IMG/VR virus record: IMGVR_UViG_648276649_000002
Length of the DNA stretch: 28,032 bases
Direction: 5' to 3' (one strand)
Source of the DNA: a virus
Taxonomy: Duplodnaviria; Heunggongvirae; Uroviricota; Caudoviricetes
In this document: positions 3,165 to 22,971 of the stretch, piece by piece
How the letters are laid out: each line of letters begins with the position of its first letter
Position numbering within the stretch: the first letter of the stretch is position 1
Program-made: the position numbers and the translations under genes
The notes under the pieces: generated by a model
Database searches by the model: none
What the model was told of the DNA's origin: nothing
What the model saw: the letters and a program-made list of their open reading frames with translations, nothing else

Positions 3165-4265
3165 TCATTCCATTTCGAAATCATCAATCCTCACTTCAAG
3201 CTCCAGACTGGTCGTAAAACCATTATCCGGGCTGACGGTATGTGTCAGAGTCGTAATGGTCCATTCCGCATCATCTATCGGCTGTTTAAAACCACTGACC
3301 TTCACAGGCATTTCCGTGTAGAGATCTGCCCGCCCTTCTGCCAGTTGTAGAGAAAATGACGCAACGCCGCGTTGCAGGCGTTCCCACTGCATTTTCGCCG
3401 CTCGTTCGGCGTTGCTCCGGTTGGCATAAGTGCGATTAAGTACCAGCACGTTTTCATCCGTACCCACCAGGTAATCGCCCTGCTTCGCTTCTGGCTCTTT
3501 CTTCTGCTTCTTAGTTCTGCGCTTACGCTTCACCGTGGTGCTTTCTTTCTTCGCAGGTTCGCGGGTATGCAACCAGCTGGCAATTACGCCCGTGTAGGCT
3601 CCGCGATCTGCCAGGGTAAAGCGGTGACTGTCGCCGTCCTTACGTGTGATAGTGATCACCGGCAGTGGTTTACCGCTAGCACTTTTACCCTGTCCCTGCC
3701 GGATGAATAACAGATTGCCATTTTTCACCGACGCAATAGCACCGTACTGGCGCGCCAGCCGCATCAGAAAACTGCCGTCACTCTCATTAGTCTGGTCTAT
3801 ATGCTCCACAGGCTTATCCGACAGGTCTTTACCCAGTGCCATCTTCAGCTTGTGACGTACGGCTATTTCCTTCACTACTTCCCCGACGGTGGTCTTGTGC
3901 CACGACTTTTCACGGCGGGTATTCAGCGTTTCACGAAAATCAGCACTTCGCGCCCGAATAGTCAGGCGGTCCGGTGCGCCAGTGTGTTCAATCTCGTCCA
4001 CCGTGAATGCCCCTTTCGGGAAAAGCGGCTGCCCCTTCCAGCCCAGCGCCAGCGTAATGACCGCACCACGGCGCGGCAGCACGATTTTTCCGTCGGCGTC
4101 GTCCAGCTCCAGATCAAGCTGGTCCGCTTCAAAGCCCCGATTGTCCGTCAGCGTCAGACTCATCAGACGGTTATCCAGCACAGTGGTGATATCCCTGCCC
4201 TCAATACTGATACTGAATGCCGGAGTTTTGTTGCCTTTGTTAAGCAGTTCAGAGCTGAAATTCAT
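3165..4265 (-). CDS. D: tail protein D (late control D family)
   Basis: 366-aa ORF in the P2 gpD position; basic Lys/Arg-rich central segment; overlaps U stop. Confidence 0.85.
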   Translation of the reverse strand: MNFSSELLNKGNKTPAFSISIEGRDITTVLDNRLMSLTLTDNRGFEADQLDLELDDADGKIVLPRRGAVITLALGWKGQPLFPKGAFTVDEIEHTGAPDRLTIRARSADFRETLNTRREKSWHKTTVGEVVKEIAVRHKLKMALGKDLSDKPVEHIDQTNESDGSFLMRLARQYGAIASVKNGNLLFIRQGQGKSASGKPLPVITITRKDGDSHRFTLADRGAYTGVIASWLHTREPAKKESTTVKRKRRTKKQKKEPEAKQGDYLVGTDENVLVLNRTYANRSNAERAAKMQWERLQRGVASFSLQLAEGRADLYTEMPVKVSGFKQPIDDAEWTITTLTHTVSPDNGFTTSLELEVRIDDFEME

Positions 4266-4747
4266 GACAGCAGCCCTCCCACCGTTTTACTGATATCGCT
4301 TAAGGCAGATGTTGCCATGTCCTGCAGATTATTCAGCTGCGCACTGAGATCACCAAACATATCGGACAGGGATTCATCCACCCGTTTGAGCGACAGGGTG
4401 AACTCAATCCGGCGCGGCATACCGTCGCGGAAAAACTCCGTTTTGGTCTGATTCAGTCCCTCAATCACATACATGCCGTAAATCGTGCCGCTGCCTTCAA
4501 TCAGGGGCCATGCTTTCCCCTGCTCTGCCATCTGCTCCAGTGCCAGCAATGACAGCCTGCCGCCTGTTATCTCCGGCATAAGAACACCAGAAAGCGTCAG
4601 CATGTCGTTGTCCGGTCCCAGAAACTGCGTGGATGGACGACGATTTACCCGACTGTTAGCCGCATGTCGCCAGCTGCGCTGATACTGCAGTTCCTGATAC
4701 GGCACGGTGCGCAGCATAAACACGTACAATCCCAGCACCATCATCAT
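4262..4747 (-). CDS. U: tail protein U
   Basis: 161-aa ORF between T and D, as in P2 FETUD. Confidence 0.8.
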   Translation of the reverse strand: MMMVLGLYVFMLRTVPYQELQYQRSWRHAANSRVNRRPSTQFLGPDNDMLTLSGVLMPEITGGRLSLLALEQMAEQGKAWPLIEGSGTIYGMYVIEGLNQTKTEFFRDGMPRRIEFTLSLKRVDESLSDMFGDLSAQLNNLQDMATSALSDISKTVGGLLS

Positions 4748-6300
4748 GCGTCGTATCCCCCCTGATCGCTGTAGTTACTCCTGGCTTTTGCCTTCAGCCT
4801 GCGTTCACGTTCATCAAGCTGGCGGGCCACCTCCCGCGCAATATCCTGCGCACTTTGTCCTGGCTGCGTCTGAATGATGATCTGCGTCGGTGCCTCAATC
4901 CGTTGAACGGGCGGCACAGTGGCTGCACGACTCACCATCGCTTCGCCGCCTTTCGCGGGAAGTGCCAAAGGATGTAACGGTGGAAGCTCTGTAGGCGCGG
5001 CAGCAACGCCCATCATTTCGGCAACAACCGCAGCCAGTGCAGCGGTATTTCTCCGGCTGGTCACGTTTGCCGGGCCGTTGACAATTTCCGGCCCGTTTTC
5101 ACCGACGATGCCAAACTGCCCGCGCGGGATATAGCCGCCGCTGTCATACATCCCCGCAAAGCCATATCCCCATGACGGAAAACCACCCGATGGCATCATC
5201 ACTTTACCGTCTGCATTCACCGTCGCAGGTTGCTGACGCGTCACGCTTTCCGGCAGTTTCGCCTTTGCGGCCTCTTTACTGACAATGCCGAGCTTCTCCA
5301 GCAACCAGGAAACGCCGGATTTCAGTGAGTCCAGCGGATGCATGACCATATTCAGCCCTTCCGCCAGTGCCTCCCCGAATCGCCGCCCCATTGCCGCTGC
5401 ACTCTGCAGTTCGGCAGAGGTCGACTTAACGGGCGTCAGCAGATCAGTAAACCAGCCCCACAGCGCCTGCACTTTGTCGCCAATCCACTGAAACACAGGC
5501 TTAAGTGGTTCGAATGCAGCACTGATGGGACCTGCCGCCGCTTTGAATCCTTCCACCACGCCACCGAGAAATGCGGTGATGGGTTGCCAGTATTTCCAGA
5601 CAACCAGCGCCACGCCCGCCAGTGCAGTAACCACAAGACCTATCGGACTGAGCAGAGCACCTAACAGACCAGATACGGCATACAGAGCAACGCGCAGCAT
5701 CGCCAGCGGACCGGATGCCAGCACTCGCAGCACCGCGCCTGCGGCGGTCAGTCCACCGCGCAGTACCGCCAGTGGATTCATAAACATCACAGCAACCGCA
5801 CGTAAACCGGATAATCCAGACCGCAATAGTGCAACCGGCGCACCTGCTACAGTTTTCAGGACATTTCCCGTCAGTGATGCCGTACGGCGCAAAGACGACA
5901 ACGGCGCAGTAAGTAAACCCGCTGCGTTACCCGATGAAGCAAGCCCGCGTCGCAGCACTGCCAGTGGAGCGCCAGCCAGCCAGGACAACGCGCTGCTGGT
6001 TCGTGTTACTGCTGCCGTAACGGAAGGTAACGTTTTGATGCCCAGCACAGAGAATCCCAGACGGATGACTGCCAGCGGCCCCAGCACTGCAGCCAGCGCC
6101 ACAGCCAGGGTGCCGAGTCCTACGGTAACCGCAGCCACAATAGCGGCTACTTTCATCAGTGTGCCCGTCAGTTCCGGGTTAGCTTCCACCCAGCGACGCA
6201 ACGCTCCCGTAACGCTTTTCACCGTGTACAGAATATCCATCAGCGGCATAACGTCAGTAACGGATGGCGGCCAGTGAAAAATGGTGGCGATATCAGCCAC
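4744..6300 (-). CDS. T: tail tape measure protein, shortened; no independent ATG, frame continuous with E'
   Basis: 518-aa Ala/Leu/Gly-rich ORF with hydrophobic repeats and a C-terminal MYDSGGYIPRGQFGIVGENGPEI-type segment; only about 1.56 kb lies between E and U. Confidence 0.7.
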   Translation of the reverse strand: MADIATIFHWPPSVTDVMPLMDILYTVKSVTGALRRWVEANPELTGTLMKVAAIVAAVTVGLGTLAVALAAVLGPLAVIRLGFSVLGIKTLPSVTAAVTRTSSALSWLAGAPLAVLRRGLASSGNAAGLLTAPLSSLRRTASLTGNVLKTVAGAPVALLRSGLSGLRAVAVMFMNPLAVLRGGLTAAGAVLRVLASGPLAMLRVALYAVSGLLGALLSPIGLVVTALAGVALVVWKYWQPITAFLGGVVEGFKAAAGPISAAFEPLKPVFQWIGDKVQALWGWFTDLLTPVKSTSAELQSAAAMGRRFGEALAEGLNMVMHPLDSLKSGVSWLLEKLGIVSKEAAKAKLPESVTRQQPATVNADGKVMMPSGGFPSWGYGFAGMYDSGGYIPRGQFGIVGENGPEIVNGPANVTSRRNTAALAAVVAEMMGVAAAPTELPPLHPLALPAKGGEAMVSRAATVPPVQRIEAPTQIIIQTQPGQSAQDIAREVARQLDERERRLKAKARSNYSDQGGYDA

Positions 6301-6314
6301 CAGATCGTCAACCG

Positions 6315-6617
6315 TCAGGCTGTCGGTAAACCGGCAAGCACCGACTTCTTCAACAAAAAAGTGACAACCTCAACCGACATGGCAGTGAGATCTGCCGGGT
6401 CCATCTCTGCAATTTCCTGTGCAGTCAGTGCCGGACTGGAGATGCGGGGGATCACGGTCATCATCGCGTTCACATCCATATCCATAATGGCCTGCAGGCG
6501 TGTACCGCGCAGCGCACCGGACTGCGGTTTACGCAGCACAATTTCGGTGATTTCTGTTTTACCTCGCTTGATGGGGGTATCCAGTTGAATAGTCTTTTCA
6601 GTCTGCTTATCGCTCAT
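6315..6617 (-). CDS. E: tail assembly chaperone E
   Basis: 100-aa ORF directly upstream of the tape measure; contains the slippery heptamer near its 3' end. Confidence 0.8.
   Translation of the reverse strand: MSDKQTEKTIQLDTPIKRGKTEITEIVLRKPQSGALRGTRLQAIMDMDVNAMMTVIPRISSPALTAQEIAEMDPADLTAMSVEVVTFLLKKSVLAGLPTA
6354..6360 (-). other. programmed -1 frameshift slippery heptamer T TTT TTG (E to E')
   Basis: on the - strand reads ACT TTT TTG in the E frame; the -1 frame is open from here into the T ORF. Confidence 0.7.
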
Positions 6618-6671
6618 TTTGCTGTCCTGTAAATTGGGTTCTGGCGCGGTATCCCGCGCCGTTCAGATACA

Positions 6672-7187
6672 TCAGAGGCCGAGGGCGTTGCGGTGCGCTT
6701 CCATCAGGTCCACACCGTCCACAATTTCCACCATGTTGATAAGGTCCACTTCATAGAGCACCTCACCATTTATAGTCAGCTTCGCGTAGCTGTTGGTACT
6801 GGTCACTTTGGTGGTGTTGCTTTCGCCCGTCTTCCACTCTCCGGAATCCACTTCTTTGTGACGTCCACGCACCACAAGCTCCACAGCCTGCACTTCCCCG
6901 GTATCGTCACGCTGGATAGAGCCGGTAAAGCGCAGCTGGATGCCATCCACCGTAGCTTTGCCCATCTGTTTAAACAGCAGCAGTTCAGTACCACCAATGG
7001 AAAATTCTGTGTCCAGCGCACTGTCATCAAGCCCCAGATCCACATCCACTGCACCCGGCATTCCGCCGCCGCGATACTTCTCATATTTGCGGGTGAATTT
7101 CGGCAGCGTCAGCGACTCAACGATCCCCTGCCAGTTGTTCCCGTCATTAAACAGGTTCAGGTGTTTTAATTTGCGTGGTAAAGCCAT
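6672..7187 (-). CDS. FII: tail tube protein FII
   Basis: 171-aa ORF, size and position of P2 gpFII. Confidence 0.85.
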   Translation of the reverse strand: MALPRKLKHLNLFNDGNNWQGIVESLTLPKFTRKYEKYRGGGMPGAVDVDLGLDDSALDTEFSIGGTELLLFKQMGKATVDGIQLRFTGSIQRDDTGEVQAVELVVRGRHKEVDSGEWKTGESNTTKVTSTNSYAKLTINGEVLYEVDLINMVEIVDGVDLMEAHRNALGL

Positions 7188-7196
7188 GTTGTCCCC

Positions 7197-8036
7197 TTAC
7201 GCGCTGACCTGGCTGGAGAAATTCACCAGGTACTGATCGGTGATGCGCTGACGCAGCATCAGGTTTTCAAGTGGCGGCACTGGCGTGTAGTCGTAATCGA
7301 TGGTGAGTTTTCCGGCTTTCAGGGTGTCTTTGTCGTTCACCGACTCGTCCAGCCAGCAATCACCACCAATGAGATACCCCTGACTTACCAGGCTGCGCAT
7401 TTTGGCGCGGATACCCTCGATAATGTCGCGCGCCAGCGACGGGTTCAGCGGTTTGTCCACCGCCCACATGTGCGCTTCTGCCATTGTGTCCGTCAGCACC
7501 TGCGCCGTGCGAGTGTAGTTTTCGAAAGCAAAAAGCGGATCATCGCTCAGACAGCGGGAACCCCAGAAGCGGAAACCATCCTTGCGCACAAGCGTGGTGA
7601 CGTCGTTCTGGTTAAGCAGTCCCGCATCGGTTGCCGGGTCCTGCAGATCCCAGAACACATCAGCAGAAATTCCGGTGACACCGTTCACGCCCACGTTGGA
7701 CAGGCTTTTGTGCCATCCGGTCTGCTCGTCAATTTTGGCGCGCAGACCAAGCGCTCGGGCGGTGGCATATGCCGTTGCTTCGGCATTCAGCACCGTGTCC
7801 CAGCCAGTAAAGTCAGGCCAGATCAGCATCCCTTCGCGCTGGCTAAAGTTTTCACGGTAAGTGATCGCCTCCTGTACCGTCTTGCAGCCATACGCTGACA
7901 GGTAAGCAAATCCACGCAGGCTTTGCGCCACGCTCAGCAACTCAGTAGCTACCGCCTTGGTGTCGTGGCCTGGCACGCCGAGAATGCGCGGTTTAACGCC
8001 GAGCTGTGACTGGGCAGATAATCCAGTTGGTTTCAA
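7197..8036 (-). pseudogene. FI: tail sheath protein FI, 5'-truncated; retains about the C-terminal 280 of about 396 aa
   Basis: strong match to P2-type sheath from [11 protein letters not shown] onward to [12 protein letters not shown]; no N-terminal third and no ATG (the track start is TTG). Confidence 0.8.
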
Positions 8037-8148
8037 GGTCGCCCGTTTTCACCCGGCAAAGCCAGTTATCCCGGTCCACCTCGGTGACTACACCAGTGCG
8101 GATCAGGTTGGTGATAAGGCGCATGATTTCAGTCAGTTGTGCATTCAT
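7993..8148 (-). pseudogene. V: baseplate spike protein V, N-terminal fragment of about 45 aa then out-of-frame tail
   Basis: ATG at 8148; [36 protein letters not shown] resembles gpV N-terminus; runs into the FI remnant. Confidence 0.65.
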
Positions 8149-8159
8149 GAGAGCGATCC

Positions 8160-8188
8160 TTGCACAACCGGGTAGAGTGATGTAATAC
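8160..8188 (+). promoter_or_regulatory. candidate sigma70 promoter for the antisense moron ORF
   Basis: TTGCAC, 17-nt spacer, TAATAC on the + strand about 55 nt upstream of ATG 8244. Confidence 0.35.
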
Positions 8189-8196
8189 AGAGCGTA

Positions 8197-8214
8197 TGTA
8201 TGGAGAACCACACA
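8197..8214. promoter_or_regulatory. TGT-N12-ACA dyad, candidate Ogr-dependent late promoter element (pV)
   Basis: TGTatggagaaccacACA, centred about 57 nt upstream of the V' start codon; shares gaACCACACAAA with the dyad upstream of P. Confidence 0.4.
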
Positions 8215-8243
8215 AAAGAGAAACAATTTCTAAGGTATTTAAG

Positions 8244-9110
8244 ATGACACAAATCGCAATTTATGGATTTAATTTCACTAAAAAAATCACATTTGACGGT
8301 GGTGAGTTAACTCCTATTTTCAGTTCATGGAGTGAGTTAAAAAAAAATGGCTGGGATAATGATAGGTACATCCTCACTGGTTTTTTCAAACCAAACTCGA
8401 ATAACTACGCCACTCAACAGCAGCTTATTTTTGATTTACAAGCAGTTCTTAGTTTTATTGAACAAAAAAATGTAATCATTTCAGGAGAACTTGAAAATGA
8501 TGAAACCCCTTTCAATTTCAAACCATCTCTACCCAAAAAGCTTGACAAAAAAAGAGATAAGGGTGCGGGCATTATCATCATGGAAGATTATTTTGCACCA
8601 AACAGCCGAGAAAATTTTATTTGCTTAGCCATGGAAAAACTAAATAGTAAAGCCATGCTAAAACAAGATGCCTTTAGAACATCATTTTTTAAATCAATGC
8701 TAGCTTTCCGCGACTCAATAAATTATATCGACGTCAGATATTATTTATTATTCTCGGCACTAGAAGCACTTTGCAGATTTATTAAAAATGACTACTCCCC
8801 TGCCAAAACACCACAAATAATCACTCAGGTTTTAAAAGAATATGGTTTTAATGTCGAAAAAACAGGACATACATTAGCTCAAAGAAACATTATGCATTAC
8901 TGCAAACTCCGTCACTCGCTGTTCCACAATGGTAAATACATTGCCTATCTTGATGAAAAAAACTCAGATGGCAAAATTGAAATTCAAGATTACTCATCAA
9001 ATTTGAATTTACTGGTGCCACTTGTACTAATGAAATTCATAGGATTTGATGACAATTATATAAACTGGGACTCATGGATTGATAGGAATCCATTTATCAG
9101 TAAAAAGTAA
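8244..9110 (+). CDS. hypothetical cargo protein, possible HEPN-like (Rx4H) abortive-infection candidate
   Basis: 288-aa ORF from ATG 8244 with AAGG upstream; strongly AT-rich, antisense to the late operon; C-terminal YCKLRHSLFHNGK motif. Confidence 0.7.
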   Translation: MTQIAIYGFNFTKKITFDGGELTPIFSSWSELKKNGWDNDRYILTGFFKPNSNNYATQQQLIFDLQAVLSFIEQKNVIISGELENDETPFNFKPSLPKKLDKKRDKGAGIIIMEDYFAPNSRENFICLAMEKLNSKAMLKQDAFRTSFFKSMLAFRDSINYIDVRYYLLFSALEALCRFIKNDYSPAKTPQIITQVLKEYGFNVEKTGHTLAQRNIMHYCKLRHSLFHNGKYIAYLDEKNSDGKIEIQDYSSNLNLLVPLVLMKFIGFDDNYINWDSWIDRNPFISKK

Positions 9111-9136
9111 ACTAAATTTTATAAATGTGGTTTTAT

Positions 9137-9583
9137 TTATCTCTGTAACCAATTTAGCAAAGCATCCTGAATGACAGTTTCCACATCATCATTTACGCCT
9201 AGGAGACGACGCTCTGCATAACGGACCTCCGGTCCTCTTCGACTGATGCGATCACGCAGGCCGTAGTGATGAACGCGGGCAATGCGCTGCACCTTACCTT
9301 CAAACTGCACGCTGGCAGAATCGGCGCTGGCGGCAGTTTTCAGGTATTTTGTGGTGCGCAGCTTTGTAAACATCTGACGTTTGATGCGCCCCTTTTTGCT
9401 GCGTGCTGTTACCCGTCGCGGCTCATAACTGCTGCCATCTGGATTGCGCTGCATCCTGATGTTCTGCTGCTGTGTCCGGCGCAGTTCCTGCGCCAGCTGG
9501 CGCATCATGCGGCTTCTTGCGGCTGGCTCCAGATTCGCCAGCAAGGCACTCAGCCAGTCGTCCACCTTCTGCAATTCAGCCAC
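9137..9583 (-). CDS. S: tail completion protein S
   Basis: 148-aa ORF in the gpS position downstream of R. Confidence 0.8.
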   Translation of the reverse strand: MAELQKVDDWLSALLANLEPAARSRMMRQLAQELRRTQQQNIRMQRNPDGSSYEPRRVTARSKKGRIKRQMFTKLRTTKYLKTAASADSASVQFEGKVQRIARVHHYGLRDRISRRGPEVRYAERRLLGVNDDVETVIQDALLNWLQR

Positions 9584-10007
9584 GTTTCACCGTCCACATT
9601 TCTTCAGGTTCATCAGGTTCCGCTATAGCTTCAACGCTCGACACACTGCCGTCAGTGCTGACCAGCACACGCTCCGTCAGTTGCAGGTTCAGGCTGATAT
9701 CACAGACATCGTTGCGCAGAATATCCACCTCAAAGGTGAATAGTTTTTCCCGTAACGCCGGGTTATTGATGGCATCGGGCTGGTTATCCCGCAGCCACAG
9801 CAAAACCGGGGCCATCAGCAGATTCTGGTCGCCGCTGAAATCCTCAATCACTGCGTTCAGCGTGTAACGGTACTCCCACGACATGGAGCTGGTCCCCGTG
9901 GCAACCAGCGAACCGTTATCCACAAACAGATGCAGTTTGTCCGGGTTATTGCGGACATAAGGCACTGCTTTATTAAGGGCGTGGCGCAGGGATTGTGGTT
10001 TGTTCAC
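9576..10007 (-). CDS. R: tail completion protein R
   Basis: likely GTG start at 10007 with AGGAG 8 nt upstream; gpR-like size and position. Confidence 0.75.
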   Translation of the reverse strand: MNKPQSLRHALNKAVPYVRNNPDKLHLFVDNGSLVATGTSSMSWEYRYTLNAVIEDFSGDQNLLMAPVLLWLRDNQPDAINNPALREKLFTFEVDILRNDVCDISLNLQLTERVLVSTDGSVSSVEAIAEPDEPEEMWTVKRG

Positions 10008-10260
10008 TGTTTCGCTCCTGACACGCAATAATCATGTCCACTTTGTCTGCACAGACCGCCCAGGCGGCCTCCGTTTCATCCAGCAACGCGTTCAGCTCAC
10101 CGTTAGTGCGCGGCGCTGTCTGATCCAGCCGACACGGCGTCACTCGCGGACAACCACTGACGGTAAGCTGCACCTCCGGTGAGTGCCGGACGTTCCCGCA
10201 GCCGGATAATGTCAGCAGGCAAAGGAGTATCAGCCCAGCGGCGTAAATCCTCATTCTCAC
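9973..10260 (-). CDS. lysC: o-spanin (Rz1-like outer-membrane lipoprotein LysC)
   Basis: starts inside lysB in another frame; signal peptide with lipobox LTLSGC; Pro-rich C-terminus. Confidence 0.7.
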   Translation of the reverse strand: MRMRIYAAGLILLCLLTLSGCGNVRHSPEVQLTVSGCPRVTPCRLDQTAPRTNGELNALLDETEAAWAVCADKVDMIIACQERNSEQTTIPAPRP

Positions 10261-17923: not shown

Positions 17924-18928
17924 TTATTCTTCTGAATCATCATAAACATCCATTCCTTCGGTCTGATTTCTAATATAAGAAGCCCCCATAGAATTAGCAA
18001 TCGCAGTCCGAATTAACCCTACATGAGTGAAAAACACCCCTAACCTAGCACGCTTTAACTCAGACTCATCATCATAGTCATCTTCATTACTTATAATTCT
18101 TCTAACCATTGCCTTATCTTCGTCAATAGCCGAAGGTAGCCCACTCTTTAAAGCGTCAATACACTCACCTACAGTTATAATTTTATTTTTAATTAATTCA
18201 GAAAGCAAATCATCATAATTTTCATCATCAGATTTATTATCAGGTGGTAATTCACTTGCAGCTATCATTTTCAGCAATTCTACGTCAAGCATAGTTCCTC
18301 TATCTAGTCTGCTTGTCTCAACATACCCCTCACGCTCTGATAACACTCTTTCAAATTCGAAATCAACGACTTCAAGCAAAGCAGATACTCTATTAATTGC
18401 TCGCCTAAGAGGAAGTGGAACACTTTGCTCTTTTTTGTATTGCAGTTTATGAGATGCTGCAGCCCAAATATGCTGAGAAAGCGTTCGTATTTGCACCTCC
18501 ACTTTCATATTTTTAAAATCACTAAAGGATGGAACTCTTAGCCATTCTTCTGGAGGTTGTATTACATAATGATGAGATTGGTACCCAAATCTATCCTCAT
18601 CCAGTTCATCAAGTTTATTCTCTTGCTTCAAAATAATGAAATGTTCTTTCAGACAAGATATAACCTTTTCAACATCTCGCTTAAATAGCATTATTAATCG
18701 GATTCCAACATAATCATCCAAGTCAACTATTGACTCAATCTTTAGAGGTTTTCGGTTATCCTTATTAATAATAGAACTTAATGTTTTGACACGGCTTTCA
18801 ATTGGAACCCCTAAAGACAATTTATTCTCCGACAAAATAACATCAATTTGCTCAACCATAACTCGTCTGAACAATTCCGCAACTGAGCCGTAAATTGAAT
18901 GCTGTTCTTTTAATTCTTCGTCTGTCAT
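17924..18928 (-). CDS. RelA/SpoT-like nucleotidyltransferase (toxSAS-like) with uncharacterised acidic C-terminal domain
   Basis: motifs RVKTLSSIINK, DYVGIRLIM, GYQSHH and EVQIRTLSQHIWAAASHKLQYK in the N-terminal half; AT-rich; RBS-like AGGT upstream. Confidence 0.8.
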   Translation of the reverse strand: MTDEELKEQHSIYGSVAELFRRVMVEQIDVILSENKLSLGVPIESRVKTLSSIINKDNRKPLKIESIVDLDDYVGIRLIMLFKRDVEKVISCLKEHFIILKQENKLDELDEDRFGYQSHHYVIQPPEEWLRVPSFSDFKNMKVEVQIRTLSQHIWAAASHKLQYKKEQSVPLPLRRAINRVSALLEVVDFEFERVLSEREGYVETSRLDRGTMLDVELLKMIAASELPPDNKSDDENYDDLLSELIKNKIITVGECIDALKSGLPSAIDEDKAMVRRIISNEDDYDDESELKRARLGVFFTHVGLIRTAIANSMGASYIRNQTEGMDVYDDSEE

Positions 18929-19044
18929 CTATCTTACCTAACTTATATAAATGAATCAGATATAAAACATTGCATAATTTTAATTCAAGTGGACAACATA
19001 TAAATTATCCGATCTAAACCACTTAAACAACAGGTTTTGCGCGC

Positions 19045-19065
19045 GCTCGTATCCCCGCCACGCCT
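19045..19065. other. candidate cos (cohesive end) site
   Basis: - strand reads GGCGTGGCGGGGAtacgagcg; first 13 nt match my recollection of the 186/P2 cohesive end. Confidence 0.45.
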
Positions 19066-19443
19066 GCCCGCTTTATGCAGTGGTTTTCATGCACATGCAT
19101 GACATGAGCAAAAGCCCGCCAGTTCTGGCGGATCTGAGCAAAGACGATCCTCAATCGATCATGCGATTTCATGCAGCATAGTCATGCACTGTCAAGGAAG
19201 TGAAAATCCGTATCTGAATGGCCACTTGAAAAACGGATCATACGGGTTTACAAAGATGAATGTTCGCTGTGAACGGGAAGCGGAAGTTAACTTTCAGATA
19301 ACATAATCCATATGCACGAGAACCTCTAAAATAGAATGGGACACCTAAGCGGGGTACTTACAACGATTCTTTCCATATTCACAGTTAACACTCTGTTTGG
19401 CGTATTTTTATTCAAATAGCAAACACCAATAAAAGGAGTTTCC

Positions 19444-19779
19444 ATGAACAATATTCCCCCTATACCACAGTTAGGAATTTATGTCTCAAAAATCGATCCC
19501 ACCCTACGTATCACTGTAACCGATGTTGATATTGTTGATGGTGAGGATGATTCTCCTGATGATGAATTGTTTTATTTAGTCCACTGGATCGAGGGGGAAG
19601 ATGAAAGTGATATGACAGCAATGGGATTTGAGCTAGACCCAGTAGAGTGGCAGGCTTTCGTTGAATCTGAGCAATTAGTGTTTGAGCGTGATCCGTACAT
19701 GGATTCAATCCCCGAAAATTCAAACTTGGCAAAGATTCGGGATTTTCTCATGAAGACTAAACAGAATGATCATTCGTAA
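19444..19779 (+). CDS. hypothetical small acidic protein
   Basis: 111-aa ORF with AAAAGGAG 7 nt upstream of ATG; very Asp/Glu-rich; sits where P2 carries old/tin. Confidence 0.6.
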   Translation: MNNIPPIPQLGIYVSKIDPTLRITVTDVDIVDGEDDSPDDELFYLVHWIEGEDESDMTAMGFELDPVEWQAFVESEQLVFERDPYMDSIPENSNLAKIRDFLMKTKQNDHS

Positions 19780-19971
19780 GTGTAAGCATCCATCAGGAAA
19801 ATGGTTTTGTAAGTGAATCATCAACTTTTAGAGAGTCTCAGACACTCCCACTTCTGCTTCTGACACAAAGCGGACGATCACTTATCAAAATAACCGCCCA
19901 CCTTACGCCTTATTTCACTCATTGCCCAAACTAGCCCCCATCAGAATGAATCCTCCTGGGGGCAACATTTC

Positions 19972-20205
19972 TTAATGCAGCCAGCTGTCGTCCTCCCACA
20001 CCTTCTGCATAATTTTCATCACTTGTTTTCTTTCTTCATCCAGTTGCAGTCCGGTTAGTTCCACACCGTTAGAGCTACCTTTGCGAATGCGAATTACCGT
20101 TTTGGGATACAGGGGGCGCAGATTGCGGTAAAGCTCGGATTCAAGTGCGTCCAGGGTAGACTGGCTAATCTTCTGCTCTTTATCGATCATTATTTCAATG
20201 CGCAT
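19972..20205 (-). CDS. DinI-family protein (Tum C-terminal-domain-like)
   Basis: 78-aa product from ATG 20205 (MRIEIMIDKEQ...VWEDDSWLH) resembles DinI; GAGGTGA upstream. Confidence 0.8.
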   Translation of the reverse strand: MRIEIMIDKEQKISQSTLDALESELYRNLRPLYPKTVIRIRKGSSNGVELTGLQLDEERKQVMKIMQKVWEDDSWLH

Positions 20206-20215
20206 AAAAGTCACC

Positions 20216-20404
20216 TCAGCTGATGACATCCATTGAGCGGTTGTATTCGTGGCTTCTGATTTTTGCCATGAGTTCATCAGTCAATTCAGAAACCCACTGC
20301 AGAGCCAGCCCCTTCTCTTCATCACTACACTCACTAGCCGCTACAAGCTTAAGAAAAAAATCAATGCGCTGGAGCTTCAAAGACTCCAAAAAATAGTCCT
20401 GCAT
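20216..20404 (-). CDS. small protein co-transcribed with the DinI-like gene; possible Tum N-terminal part
   Basis: 62-aa ORF with GGAGG 5 nt upstream of ATG 20404; its stop overlaps the DinI RBS. Confidence 0.5.
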   Translation of the reverse strand: MQDYFLESLKLQRIDFFLKLVAASECSDEEKGLALQWVSELTDELMAKIRSHEYNRSMDVIS

Positions 20405-20445
20405 CTTTCCTCCTATGACACCAAAACAATACTGTATGCATAACC

Positions 20446-20461
20446 ACTGTTTATATTTACA
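20446..20461. promoter_or_regulatory. LexA box (SOS operator)
   Basis: aCTGTttatatttACAGta fits CTGT-N8-ACAG with AT-rich spacer, 42 nt upstream of the small ORF start. Confidence 0.6.
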
Positions 20462-20556
20462 GTATATAATAATCTTACTGATGTAAAACGTTTTTTTACG
20501 TTCATCGGCCTGATATGCCTGGTATTATTAAGAGCACGAATTGTTAACCCGCGTAA

Positions 20557-22971
20557 TTAATACAGGTTCCGCCACTTATCATCTTCCTTCAGACGCTGGT
20601 TCCGATAGAAGATACGCAGGCCTGCTCCTGACGGAATACTGCCGCCGCGAAGGAGCAAATCGACTTCTTTCTCGCTGCCATCAAATCCCCTGGACTTCAG
20701 TTCATAGACGAGCTGCTGTCGCTGATGGTCTGTAATTCGCTGTTTGTAGTCTTTACGCCGTTTCGGTTTCACCTGGCGTAACCTTGCAGCCAGTTCCCGG
20801 CGCTCTTTTTTGCTCATACTGTGCAGGTAATCGTGCAACTCTTTGTCATTCATACGGGTAATATCCGTTCTGGAGTCCCCATCAGCTGATTTGTCTTTCC
20901 CTTGTTGGTTCAAATTTTCAGCAAGGGGACAGTTATTGCCACGAGTCCAAGGGGCGCAAGCGCCCTGGTCGGCTGCCGCCTCCTGAACGTCAACGGCCTT
21001 ACGAACCATTTTCCACTTCACTGCATGAGTGCAGATCTTGCCCTCTGCAATGGGTGACCAGATGCCATAAATACGAATACCGTGATCACCATAGGCGGTC
21101 GGCTCTTCGTTGATTTCATAAGCGGTTCTGATCAAGTGATATTTGCGGGGAACCAACACGCCGCCCTGCTTCATAATGTAGGTGGCAAAACAGCCAGCAT
21201 CAGCAGCAGCCAGAATGGCATCAAGACGCGGATCATCCAGTACCGGCGCACCTGCTTTTTTGTCACCCTGCTGCCTTGCCGCCTGACCAGCCAGCAATCG
21301 CAGTTCACGGTAAGCCTGACGCCCCGGAATGCCAAAGAAGCGGAATTGCTGAACACGATGCAGAGACGCCCAGGCATTAACGTATTCAGCGTTATCACGC
21401 AGGGATTTACCCGTTTCCTTGCTGATCTCGCCAGCCAGACCACGCCCGTCAATGTTCTTACTGATGTATTTCGCGATGTAGCTTGTCGGCGTTCCTTTGC
21501 GCGGGTTAATCAGCTCAGACTTAAAGCGTGGCCCCGTGTTATTGCCCAGTTCCTCGCGGTCTTCACGGATGGCAAACTTACGCAGTAATGCAGTGATGGC
21601 GCGGCGGTCTTTTTTACGCATGAAGCACATGAGATGCCAGTGCACAGTACCGTCATGATGCGGCTCAGCCACCCGCACGCCATACCACCGCAATCCGGCT
21701 TTGTGCATCGCCTTACGAAATGCAGCAAACATGCCGACCAGATAATCACTGCTTTGTCTTACCGTCGCATTTGTCCAGGTCGGGTTTGGTCTGCCGTTAT
21801 TGAGCGTGGAATGGAAACGTGACGGACAGGTGATGGTGTAGAAAACGGCGCAGTCACCGCGCATTTCCGCGATAAGCTCCAGACCTTTAACGCAGGCCAT
21901 CATCTCATTGCGGCGATGTGCCGGGTTGCTGCTGCTGGCGTTTACCACATCTTCCATATCCAGCGTGTCTCCGTCTTCGTTCACCAGTTCATGAGAACGG
22001 AAAAACTCCAGCGACTTGCGGCGCTGCTCACGTTTATGCGTCACTGCTTCATAGCTGACATAGGGAGATGCTTTTTTGCTGACCAGACAGACAGCACGCA
22101 ACTGCTCTTCCCGCCATTCGCAACGCATCTTCCACAATTTTCGATACCACCAGTCGGCGCAAAGCATACGTGCCAGCGAACCCGGTATGAGTTCATAGGG
22201 CACAGGTTTGCGGCGGTTTCTTTTCCGACGAAGTTTCTCAAACGCAGGCGGGATAACATCCAGACGCAGGGTTTCCGCAGCCACCTTTTCCCATGTCTTG
22301 CGGATTTCTTCTGGCTTAACGTCATCGGTGGCGTACAAATCACCACAAGCGGCCTCAAGACACATGCTCATATGCGCTGCTACCAGGGTGGACAGGCGTT
22401 TCACCTGATCCTGGCTCATTTCAGGCAGGATCAGCAGCCCCTCCAGCCCTTGATGGCTTGCCATAAAACGGAAAGAAACAGATAGCTGACTGTCACGTAC
22501 ACAATCCAGTCGCTCCAGACATGGCTTAATCGTCTCACGCAAATAGCGGGAATAAGCCTTTGGCCTGCCCAGGCTGCTGAAGTATTCGATACGTTGCATC
22601 AGCGGCTTGCTGATATGAGAAGGCTGGGCGCTGACATCTGCCAGAATGACCATGTCCGGGTTAAAACGCTGCTGCTCATGCGCCAGCTTTGCCCGGCTAA
22701 TGAGCTTATCCTGCTCCATTTCGCGCTGGACAGGATCACGGGATTCATTAAAGAAATAACGCTCCCAGACCTGCTCACTCAGTGCCTCGCGGCGCAGTTG
22801 TTCCTGCTCGTTATCGGCAGCGTACAGAGTGATCAGGTTTGAAAGTGCAGACTCCGGCGCAACTTCCGCCGGATCCAGATAAGGGTTAATGGCCTTTTTC
22901 GGGCCGTTCCATGAAAATGCTGCGGCAGCCTCGTTAAAGCCGCTAGAGTTGCTCATATCGTCATGACTCAT
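20557..22971 (-). CDS. A: replication initiation protein A (rolling-circle nickase)
   Basis: 804-aa ORF, P2 gpA-like size and position; overlaps the dam stop. Confidence 0.9.

Follow-up and report, generated by a model that had tools for sequence, protein, structure and literature searches.

An acidic protein of 111 amino acids is encoded beside the cos site of a defective prophage, and the most likely reading of it, held tentatively and with somewhat less than even confidence, is that of an acidic decoy expressed in the lysogen and acting in mobile-element conflicts. We infer three parts of this reading: that the gene is expressed in the lysogen, that its product works as a decoy, and what kind of target it has. 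The DNA analysed is a stretch of 28,032 nucleotides, referred to here as the window. The gene is ybl33 and its family is catalogued as DUF8087. A small acidic protein on a mobile element is a familiar kind of thing. The predicted scaffold of this one, and the integrase-side contexts of its relatives, are not.

The gene and its product

The gene and its translation signal are located as follows.

19444-19779, plus strand: ybl33 (DUF8087) open reading frame, ATG to TAA, 111 amino acids, 12.8 kDa
19431-19438, plus strand: Shine-Dalgarno sequence AAAAGGAG, 5 nt before the ATG, read from the sequence

The original prediction described a small, highly acidic 111-aa open reading frame with a strong ribosome-binding site. 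Its coordinates, AAAAGGAG and both of its acidic runs were verified, and the observation of a small acidic cos-proximal gene is confirmed. The core of the ribosome-binding site is AAGGAG, and AAAGGA is kept in six other genera. Ybl33 contains 26 D/E residues versus seven K/R, which gives a net charge of -19 and a pI of 4.05. The acidic runs are DGEDDSPDDE (residues 32-41) and EGEDESD (residues 50-56). The product reads as cytoplasmic and without a catalytic motif. The GC content of the gene is 40%, versus 50.5% for the window.

Family, conservation and distribution

It is clear that ybl33 is a real coding gene under purifying selection. This conclusion follows from 61 homologues in the Enterobacterales (50-98% identity, with gaps confined to the acidic loop and the C-terminal tail), a dN/dS of 0.10-0.22 against 11 homologues and a full-length profile match to phrog_17127 (E 2e-70, residues 1-111 to positions 1-111 of 111). 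The exact window protein is named Ybl33 in UniRef and is identical in REL606 and BL21. Assignment to Pfam PF26332 (DUF8087) is indirect but consistent: the precomputed label is on 61 of 61 homologues, including a cluster representative that is 98% identical, and RefSeq gives the name "DUF8087 domain-containing protein" to copies that are 99.6% and about 89% identical. PF26332, phrog_17127 and the E. coli B gene ybl33 (WP_001059831.1; ECB_RS04395) are the same family as the window protein, with no difference between them.

What is already known amounts to the family being catalogued as a DUF and the gene being annotated in RefSeq. A literature search found no publication on DUF8087, PF26332 or WP_001059831 and no relevant one on ybl33. 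Pfam, NCBIfam and PADLOC scans of Ybl33 gave no informative match; the Pfam scan, with a model set that did not contain PF26332, returned no family at E <= 1. Pfam and PADLOC scans of 29 DUF8087 members were equally uninformative and matched no known defence family, and a PDB sequence search with two profiles (A1 and A3) gave no match at E <= 10. No relative of DUF8087 could be detected among characterised proteins.

Acidity is a conserved trait of the whole family. The net charge ranges from -15 to -22 in 40 close homologues and from -8 to -19 in 28 distant ones, which have a pI of 4.05-4.53. A profile search of 1.84 billion cluster representatives found only 35 clusters, and the distant ones (68-132 aa, matching the first 80 positions) are all acidic. 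Just three residues, P8, G11 and W69, are invariant in an alignment of 62 family members. The near-invariant positions are hydrophobic and otherwise only acidic (D56, E63), so DUF8087 shows no enzyme-like motif and no part of it looks like an active site. The loop EGEDExDM (residues 50-57) is also conserved.

The distribution of the gene is uneven. The 661 bp around ybl33 are 100% identical in E. coli B REL606, BL21(DE3) and many other strains. The cassette is present in 132 of 5426 complete E. coli genomes (at least 80% coverage), and its DUF8087 part is found at 99% identity or more in about 137 of the 1301 E. coli genomes that bear this cos segment. In tblastn searches the gene was absent from 50,697 deposited phage genomes and the family appeared in one of 72,556 plasmid records. 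The gene is therefore narrowly spread, in part perhaps because it has hitch-hiked with one prophage lineage.

The prophage and the cos-proximal slot

The window holds a defective 186-like prophage of the P2/186 group. The order is host permease, then tail genes, capsid, terminase and portal, then a small alarmone synthetase (SAS)-like cargo gene, cos and ybl33, followed by a DinI-like SOS operon, gpA and Dam, and finally CII, CI and integrase. What is left is a remnant of about 25 kb in which the baseplate and tail-fibre genes are missing and the sheath open reading frame is truncated (it matches phrog_23 positions 151-475 of 496). Nevertheless, ybl33 is intact and 100% identical in this tail-less remnant. 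Other prophage features are located as follows.

3165-10028: region of the sheath remnant and the missing baseplate and tail-fibre genes, especially 7197-8036 (minus strand) and 8196-9110 (plus strand)
19046-19064, minus strand: cos cohesive end, reading GGCGTGGCGGGGATACGAG on that strand, a 14/19 match to P2 cosR
20216-20404 and 19972-20277, both minus strand: open reading frames of the SOS operon

The sheath remnant is separated from the tail-completion genes by a 304-aa open reading frame (phrog_4373, no Pfam or NCBIfam match). On the other side of ybl33, a perfect LexA box, CTGTTTATATTTACAG, is found at 20447-20462 upstream of a 62-aa open reading frame (phrog_698) and the DinI-like gene. 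This operon is the positional counterpart of the p95-tum SOS operon of phage 186, and the 62-aa protein has no similarity to Tum. Could ybl33 stand in for 186 Tum? This idea was rejected because the SOS operon is present separately. LexA control of ybl33 was likewise rejected: the window's one LexA box is that of the dinI-like operon.

The flanks of cos are conserved relative to P2 cosR. cos parts the DUF8087 side (the right genome end) from the side of the SAS-like cargo (the left end), and ybl33 starts 380 bp from it. In P2, transcription of old and tin, which are exclusion genes of lysogenic conversion, begins about 150 bp from cosR, is directed away from cos and is convergent with the A operon. 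The earlier placement of the gene in the slot where P2 carries old and tin is therefore borne out by both position and orientation, in that ybl33 too lies in the interval from cos to where the replication operon ends and is directed away from cos. No homology links the genes. Old is a 586-aa ATPase/TOPRIM nuclease and Tin is 253 aa long, whereas Ybl33, at 111 aa, is free of enzymatic motifs.

The boundaries of the insertion can be drawn by comparison with a related phage and with homologues in other genera.

19191-19961, no strand assigned: inserted cassette, relative to the empty slot of P2-like phage vB_EcoM-813R9
19266-19443, plus strand: upstream region that travels with the open reading frame, containing a putative promoter and a leader of about 130 nt

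Phage vB_EcoM-813R9 aligns to window positions 19037-19190 and 19962-20600 and joins cos to dinI by only 68 bp, which sets the insert at about 19191-19961. The presence of ybl33 here and its absence from this relative show it to be true cargo of a cos-proximal hotspot. It lies between gpA and gpQ, beside cos, and is variably present, as P2 hotspot genes are. In P2 relatives, anti-phage genes are described as clustering in both slots in which ybl33 relatives occur, the cos-proximal one, where P2 old and tin also lie, and the one between repressor and integrase (PMC9122126). In Table S5A of that paper (Rousset et al., 2022) WP_001059831 appears at P2 hotspot loci as a "hypothetical" entry next to several of the cargoes found across cos; the accession is not present in the other supplementary tables (PMC9122126).

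The upstream DNA is 87-90% identical in Serratia, Symbiopectobacterium, Lonsdalea, Proteus and Morganella. In these five genera the similarity starts at 19266-19322 (120-180 bp before the ATG) and ends at the stop codon. Since it spans the upstream region and the open reading frame only, ybl33 moves with its own upstream DNA, and it is a self-contained, one-gene accessory cassette. A conserved GGTAACATAAT marks the 5' edge of the upstream region and a -10-like CATAAT is present at 19302-19307. A strict promoter scan of the plus strand of this region found no sigma-70 promoter and no convincing -35. A structured or covarying 5' leader was considered and rejected: RNAalifold found no compensatory pairs and no covarying structure, and one homologue has an internal 29-column deletion in the leader. 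An Rfam search of 18900-20600 gave no match.

Genomic contexts of relatives

The relatives of ybl33 fall into several settings. In Klebsiella-type P2-like prophages (loci L002-L007, L013 and L058-L061) the operon order is HTH repressor, Flk_N protein (phrog_5825), DUF8087 and integrase. Here the DUF8087 stop codon overlaps the int start by 4-14 nt, which argues that DUF8087 is transcribed with the lysogeny genes. The Flk_N protein has about 210 aa and weak similarity to the C-terminal domain of Ant/KilAC antirepressors. It is not an obligate partner, as phage 520873 has Flk_N without DUF8087 and the window has DUF8087 without Flk_N.

A distant subfamily, with a basic N-terminal tail (MGQAKLRGSKEERIAQ), is found in small integrative islands (loci L022, L023, L064-L066, L068, L069 and L075). 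Their order is integrase, 0-1.2 kb of variable cargo, DUF8087, a control region, a divergent HTH_17(AlpA)-GpA operon and defence cargo. DUF8087 is fixed in these AlpA-GpA islands: in seven loci, the integrase side of the divergent control region has it as its sole protein gene. The control region has 340-390 bp and no protein open reading frame, so no protein repressor is encoded in it. It does contain a conserved TTGACA and hairpins, which makes RNA-based immunity conceivable. Examples of the defence cargo are a TIR-STAND protein, or Gabija together with a BglII restriction-modification system.

The cassette also occurs free in ICE or CP4-like islands of Morganella, Proteus, Lonsdalea and E. 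coli 4973, where it carries about 170 bp of its own upstream DNA. It often adjoins large helicase genes there. The neighbour in Morganella encodes a 1169-aa SF1 helicase with a PLD nuclease domain (L015, 1242-4751) and that in E. coli 4973 a 1589-aa DEAD/DEAH helicase (L025, 8595-13364). Four unrelated island contexts (L010 6538-6921, L011 6538-6921, L056 538-921 and L025 7659-8042) also encode a 127-aa protein whose N-terminal segment is hydrophobic (phrog_26730); in each, exactly 201 bp separate its gene from the DUF8087 gene upstream. An obligate partnership with this membrane protein was rejected, given that it is present in only those four contexts and absent from the window.

In Xenorhabdus DUF8087 stands alone beside a filamentous prophage. 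In Pantoea (L020, 6001-6309) a 33%-identical member stands alone beside pgsA-uvrC-uvrY. The pgsA-uvrC site is also the integration site of the Klebsiella P2-like prophages, and the Pantoea member may be all that survives of a prophage that has decayed.

Predicted structure and comparison with known mimics

AlphaFold2 was given two sets of sequences. With 40 close homologues the five models disagreed (pLDDT 81, pTM 0.65), whereas with 62 diverse sequences they shared one common topology (pLDDT 81-84.5, pTM 0.71). The predicted fold is a five-stranded SH3-like beta-barrel with acidic loops at residues 32-42 and 51-59, and it would be completed by a packed helix and a C-terminal amphipathic helix. 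In the AlphaFold2 model the strands are at residues 11-15, 22-31, 43-50, 60-64 and 78-82, and the helices at 66-75 (between strands 4 and 5), 84-87 (short) and 94-108 (C-terminal). The acidic stretch 32-42 is modelled as a loop of low confidence and its length varies across the family.

The best structural matches of the predicted core are SH3/Tudor-like domains. Foldseek searches of BFVD and the PDB gave no match to the model at E <= 1e-3. DUF1653 (PDB 3be3) and the small barrels of the FeoA/CarD/Tudor type share 5-15% sequence identity with Ybl33, and their match scores are what any small SH3-like barrel would be expected to give, so that no function can be transferred from them.

Is Ybl33 a mimic of the Ocr or ArdA type, as had been proposed on the basis of its acidity? 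Like Ocr (T7 gp0.3) and ArdA it is acidic, small and carried on mobile elements. However, the folds of those proteins are helical or elongated and imitate bent B-DNA, whereas the fold predicted for Ybl33 is a compact beta-barrel, and there is no Pfam or PDB sequence match. The suggested comparison of structures thus showed neither the elongated helical fold of Ocr nor the three-domain fold of ArdA, and speaks against a mimic of this type.

A precedent is CarS1 of Myxococcus xanthus, an acidic SH3-like mimic of operator DNA that acts as an antirepressor and has a pI of 4.1 (PMC2926617). CarS captures a repressor by its recognition helix, which is part of a winged-helix domain of the MerR type (PMC2926617), and acts by protein binding and not by catalysis. 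Both proteins are small and very acidic. CarS1 has a five-stranded SH3-like sheet, and a five-stranded barrel is predicted for Ybl33. DNA mimics have a reported pI range of 3.8-5.5 (PMC2926617), and the pI of Ybl33 falls inside it. Acidity by itself does not identify a mimic.

Possible functions

If Ybl33 is a lysogen-expressed acidic decoy, it would be made while the element is integrated and would work stoichiometrically, not as an enzyme. It might occupy a basic nucleic-acid-binding surface of a target protein, by analogy with the SH3-like mimic CarS, and the outcome of a mobile-element conflict would be altered, for example by the exclusion of another phage or satellite. Several observations point to a product made in the integrated state: the position and orientation shared with old-tin, membership of a lysogeny operon in one lineage, the immunity-side location at the control region of the AlpA-GpA islands and the retention of an intact gene in a tail-less remnant. 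The conserved strong acidity, the lack of a catalytic motif and the compact predicted barrel suggest a binding protein rather than an enzyme. The reproducible topology of the five models also counts for this reading, and CarS1 provides a precedent for the mechanism. On the other hand, no credible -35 lies upstream, so expression in the lysogen is something that we infer, and the lack of a PADLOC defence match counts against a decoy. Were the decoy reading correct, Ybl33 would add a new beta-barrel scaffold to the few known nucleic-acid mimics, and the P2-family hotspot would gain a cargo that acts by binding and not by enzymatic attack. The gene is present in BL21(DE3) and REL606, two widely used E. 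coli strains, and so can be tested directly in natural carriers.

The original prediction also mentioned anti-defence and immunity proteins. Such a role is possible, and no finding favours it over a function expressed in lysogeny. In its anti-defence form, which is unlikely though not implausible, Ybl33 would be a DNA mimic of new fold that inhibits host restriction or DNA-targeting defence when the element enters a cell, akin to Ocr and ArdA by function and not by ancestry. Its small size, its pI within the reported mimic range, the restriction of DUF8087 to mobile elements, the single-gene format with its own upstream region and an ArdB/KlcA-type antirestriction gene within a few kb in the Morganella and Proteus islands would all suit such a protein. 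However, it resembles neither Ocr nor ArdA nor any solved mimic in sequence or fold, it is nearly absent from plasmids and absent from deposited phage genomes, one lineage has it in a repressor-integrase operon, and the E. coli copy is kept in a remnant that lacks a tail and is incapable of infection. The reported rarity of anti-defence genes in P2-like phages (PMC13586616) also argues against it. There is a further difficulty with one particular target, type I restriction enzymes. Classical E. coli B restricts through EcoBI. That this strain carries ybl33 and yet restricts counts against a type I restriction inhibitor that is expressed constitutively. Another reading places the target in the element itself. 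Ybl33 as a CarS-like decoy for AlpA/HTH_17, 186 Apl, P2 Cox or the GpA nickase is a rather unlikely reading, under which it would stabilise the integrated state and, as a free cassette, could target rival P2-like phages or satellites. CarS does capture the recognition helix of a MerR-type winged-helix domain, and the integrase-side place recurs in three element types (the AlpA-GpA islands, the repressor-integrase operon and 131-aa members next to integrase). The place in the AlpA-GpA islands, where the control region is without a protein repressor gene, suggests possible protein-based control of the lysis-lysogeny or excision switch. Nevertheless, the argument is purely positional and by analogy, int and CI lie about 7 kb away from the window gene, which occupies a cargo slot, and elsewhere the gene is found among the variable cargo of ICE and CP4-like islands. 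Moreover, about 90% of E. coli genomes with this cos segment are without ybl33 (132 of 1301 carry it), so it is not needed for the switch. What if DUF8087 were the protein "immunity factor" of GpA-type elements in general? As a decoy for AlpA/Apl/Cox or GpA it would hold the integrated state, replace the repressor in the small AlpA-GpA islands and, as a free cassette, be turned on the switch proteins of a rival P2-like phage or satellite. This broader idea is probably wrong. Other roles taken together (orphan immunity to a secreted toxin, chaperone activity, or modulation of a host nucleoid protein, H-NS or HU, that relieves the silencing of AT-rich cargo) are quite unlikely. The gene lies near T6SS genes in Proteus and Morganella (a PAAR-like open reading frame recognised by eye, and Hcp), its neighbours are AT-rich cargo such as the SAS-like gene (35.6% GC), and HU-binding DNA mimics exist, DMP12 being a known one (PMC3643605). 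However, no context contains a conserved toxin partner, the proximity to T6SS genes is confined to two genera and coincides with island boundaries, and no finding bears on H-NS or HU.

The remaining alternative concerns the neighbour across cos.

17924-18928, minus strand: SAS-like gene (RelA_SpoT), 334 aa, in the portal-cos slot, 35.6% GC

The two genes had been described as divergent, with cos and about 500 bp between them, and indeed 515 bp separate their start codons. From this arrangement came the suggestion that Ybl33 works in trans as an antitoxin or immunity factor against the adjacent small alarmone synthetase of the RelA/SpoT type, and acidic proteins are able to neutralise basic toxins. 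The distribution of the genes contradicts this reading, which is now highly improbable. The SAS-like gene and the cos-ybl33 segment occur together in one of 5426 complete E. coli genomes (YZLc4-1), whereas ybl33 is found alone in about 132; put another way, one of about 132 cassette-bearing genomes also has the SAS-like gene. Identity between the window and the REL606 prophage starts at cos (19039); left of it, the place of the SAS-like gene is taken in E. coli B by retron Ec86. Among 29 loci with a protein that is 96-100% identical, the portal-cos slot shows at least 20 different arrangements: the cargoes include STAND-like ATPase, reverse transcriptases, OLD-family nuclease, PIN_12, a DprA pair, AAA_13, Schlafen/AlbA_2, GmrSD and TIR/SEFIR, and the slot may be empty. 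Thus identical copies of Ybl33 face Ec86, OLD-family, PIN, DprA, Schlafen, GmrSD, TIR or STAND genes, or nothing, and the conserved adjacency and co-occurrence expected of a type II toxin-antitoxin pair are not seen. In addition, the two genes sit at opposite ends of the packaged genome with cos between them, and no RelA_SpoT neighbour is found beside the homologues in other genera. The SAS-like gene is therefore without a dedicated partner at the ybl33 position, and its control must be sought within the SAS-like protein or elsewhere. In that protein the synthetase core spans residues 43-209, and the roughly 125 aa that extend it at the C-terminus are without a match. A fused toxin-antitoxin of the CapRel type was considered, and solved structures of small alarmone synthetases match the synthetase core only. 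The PADLOC candidate family of the gene is PDC-S33.
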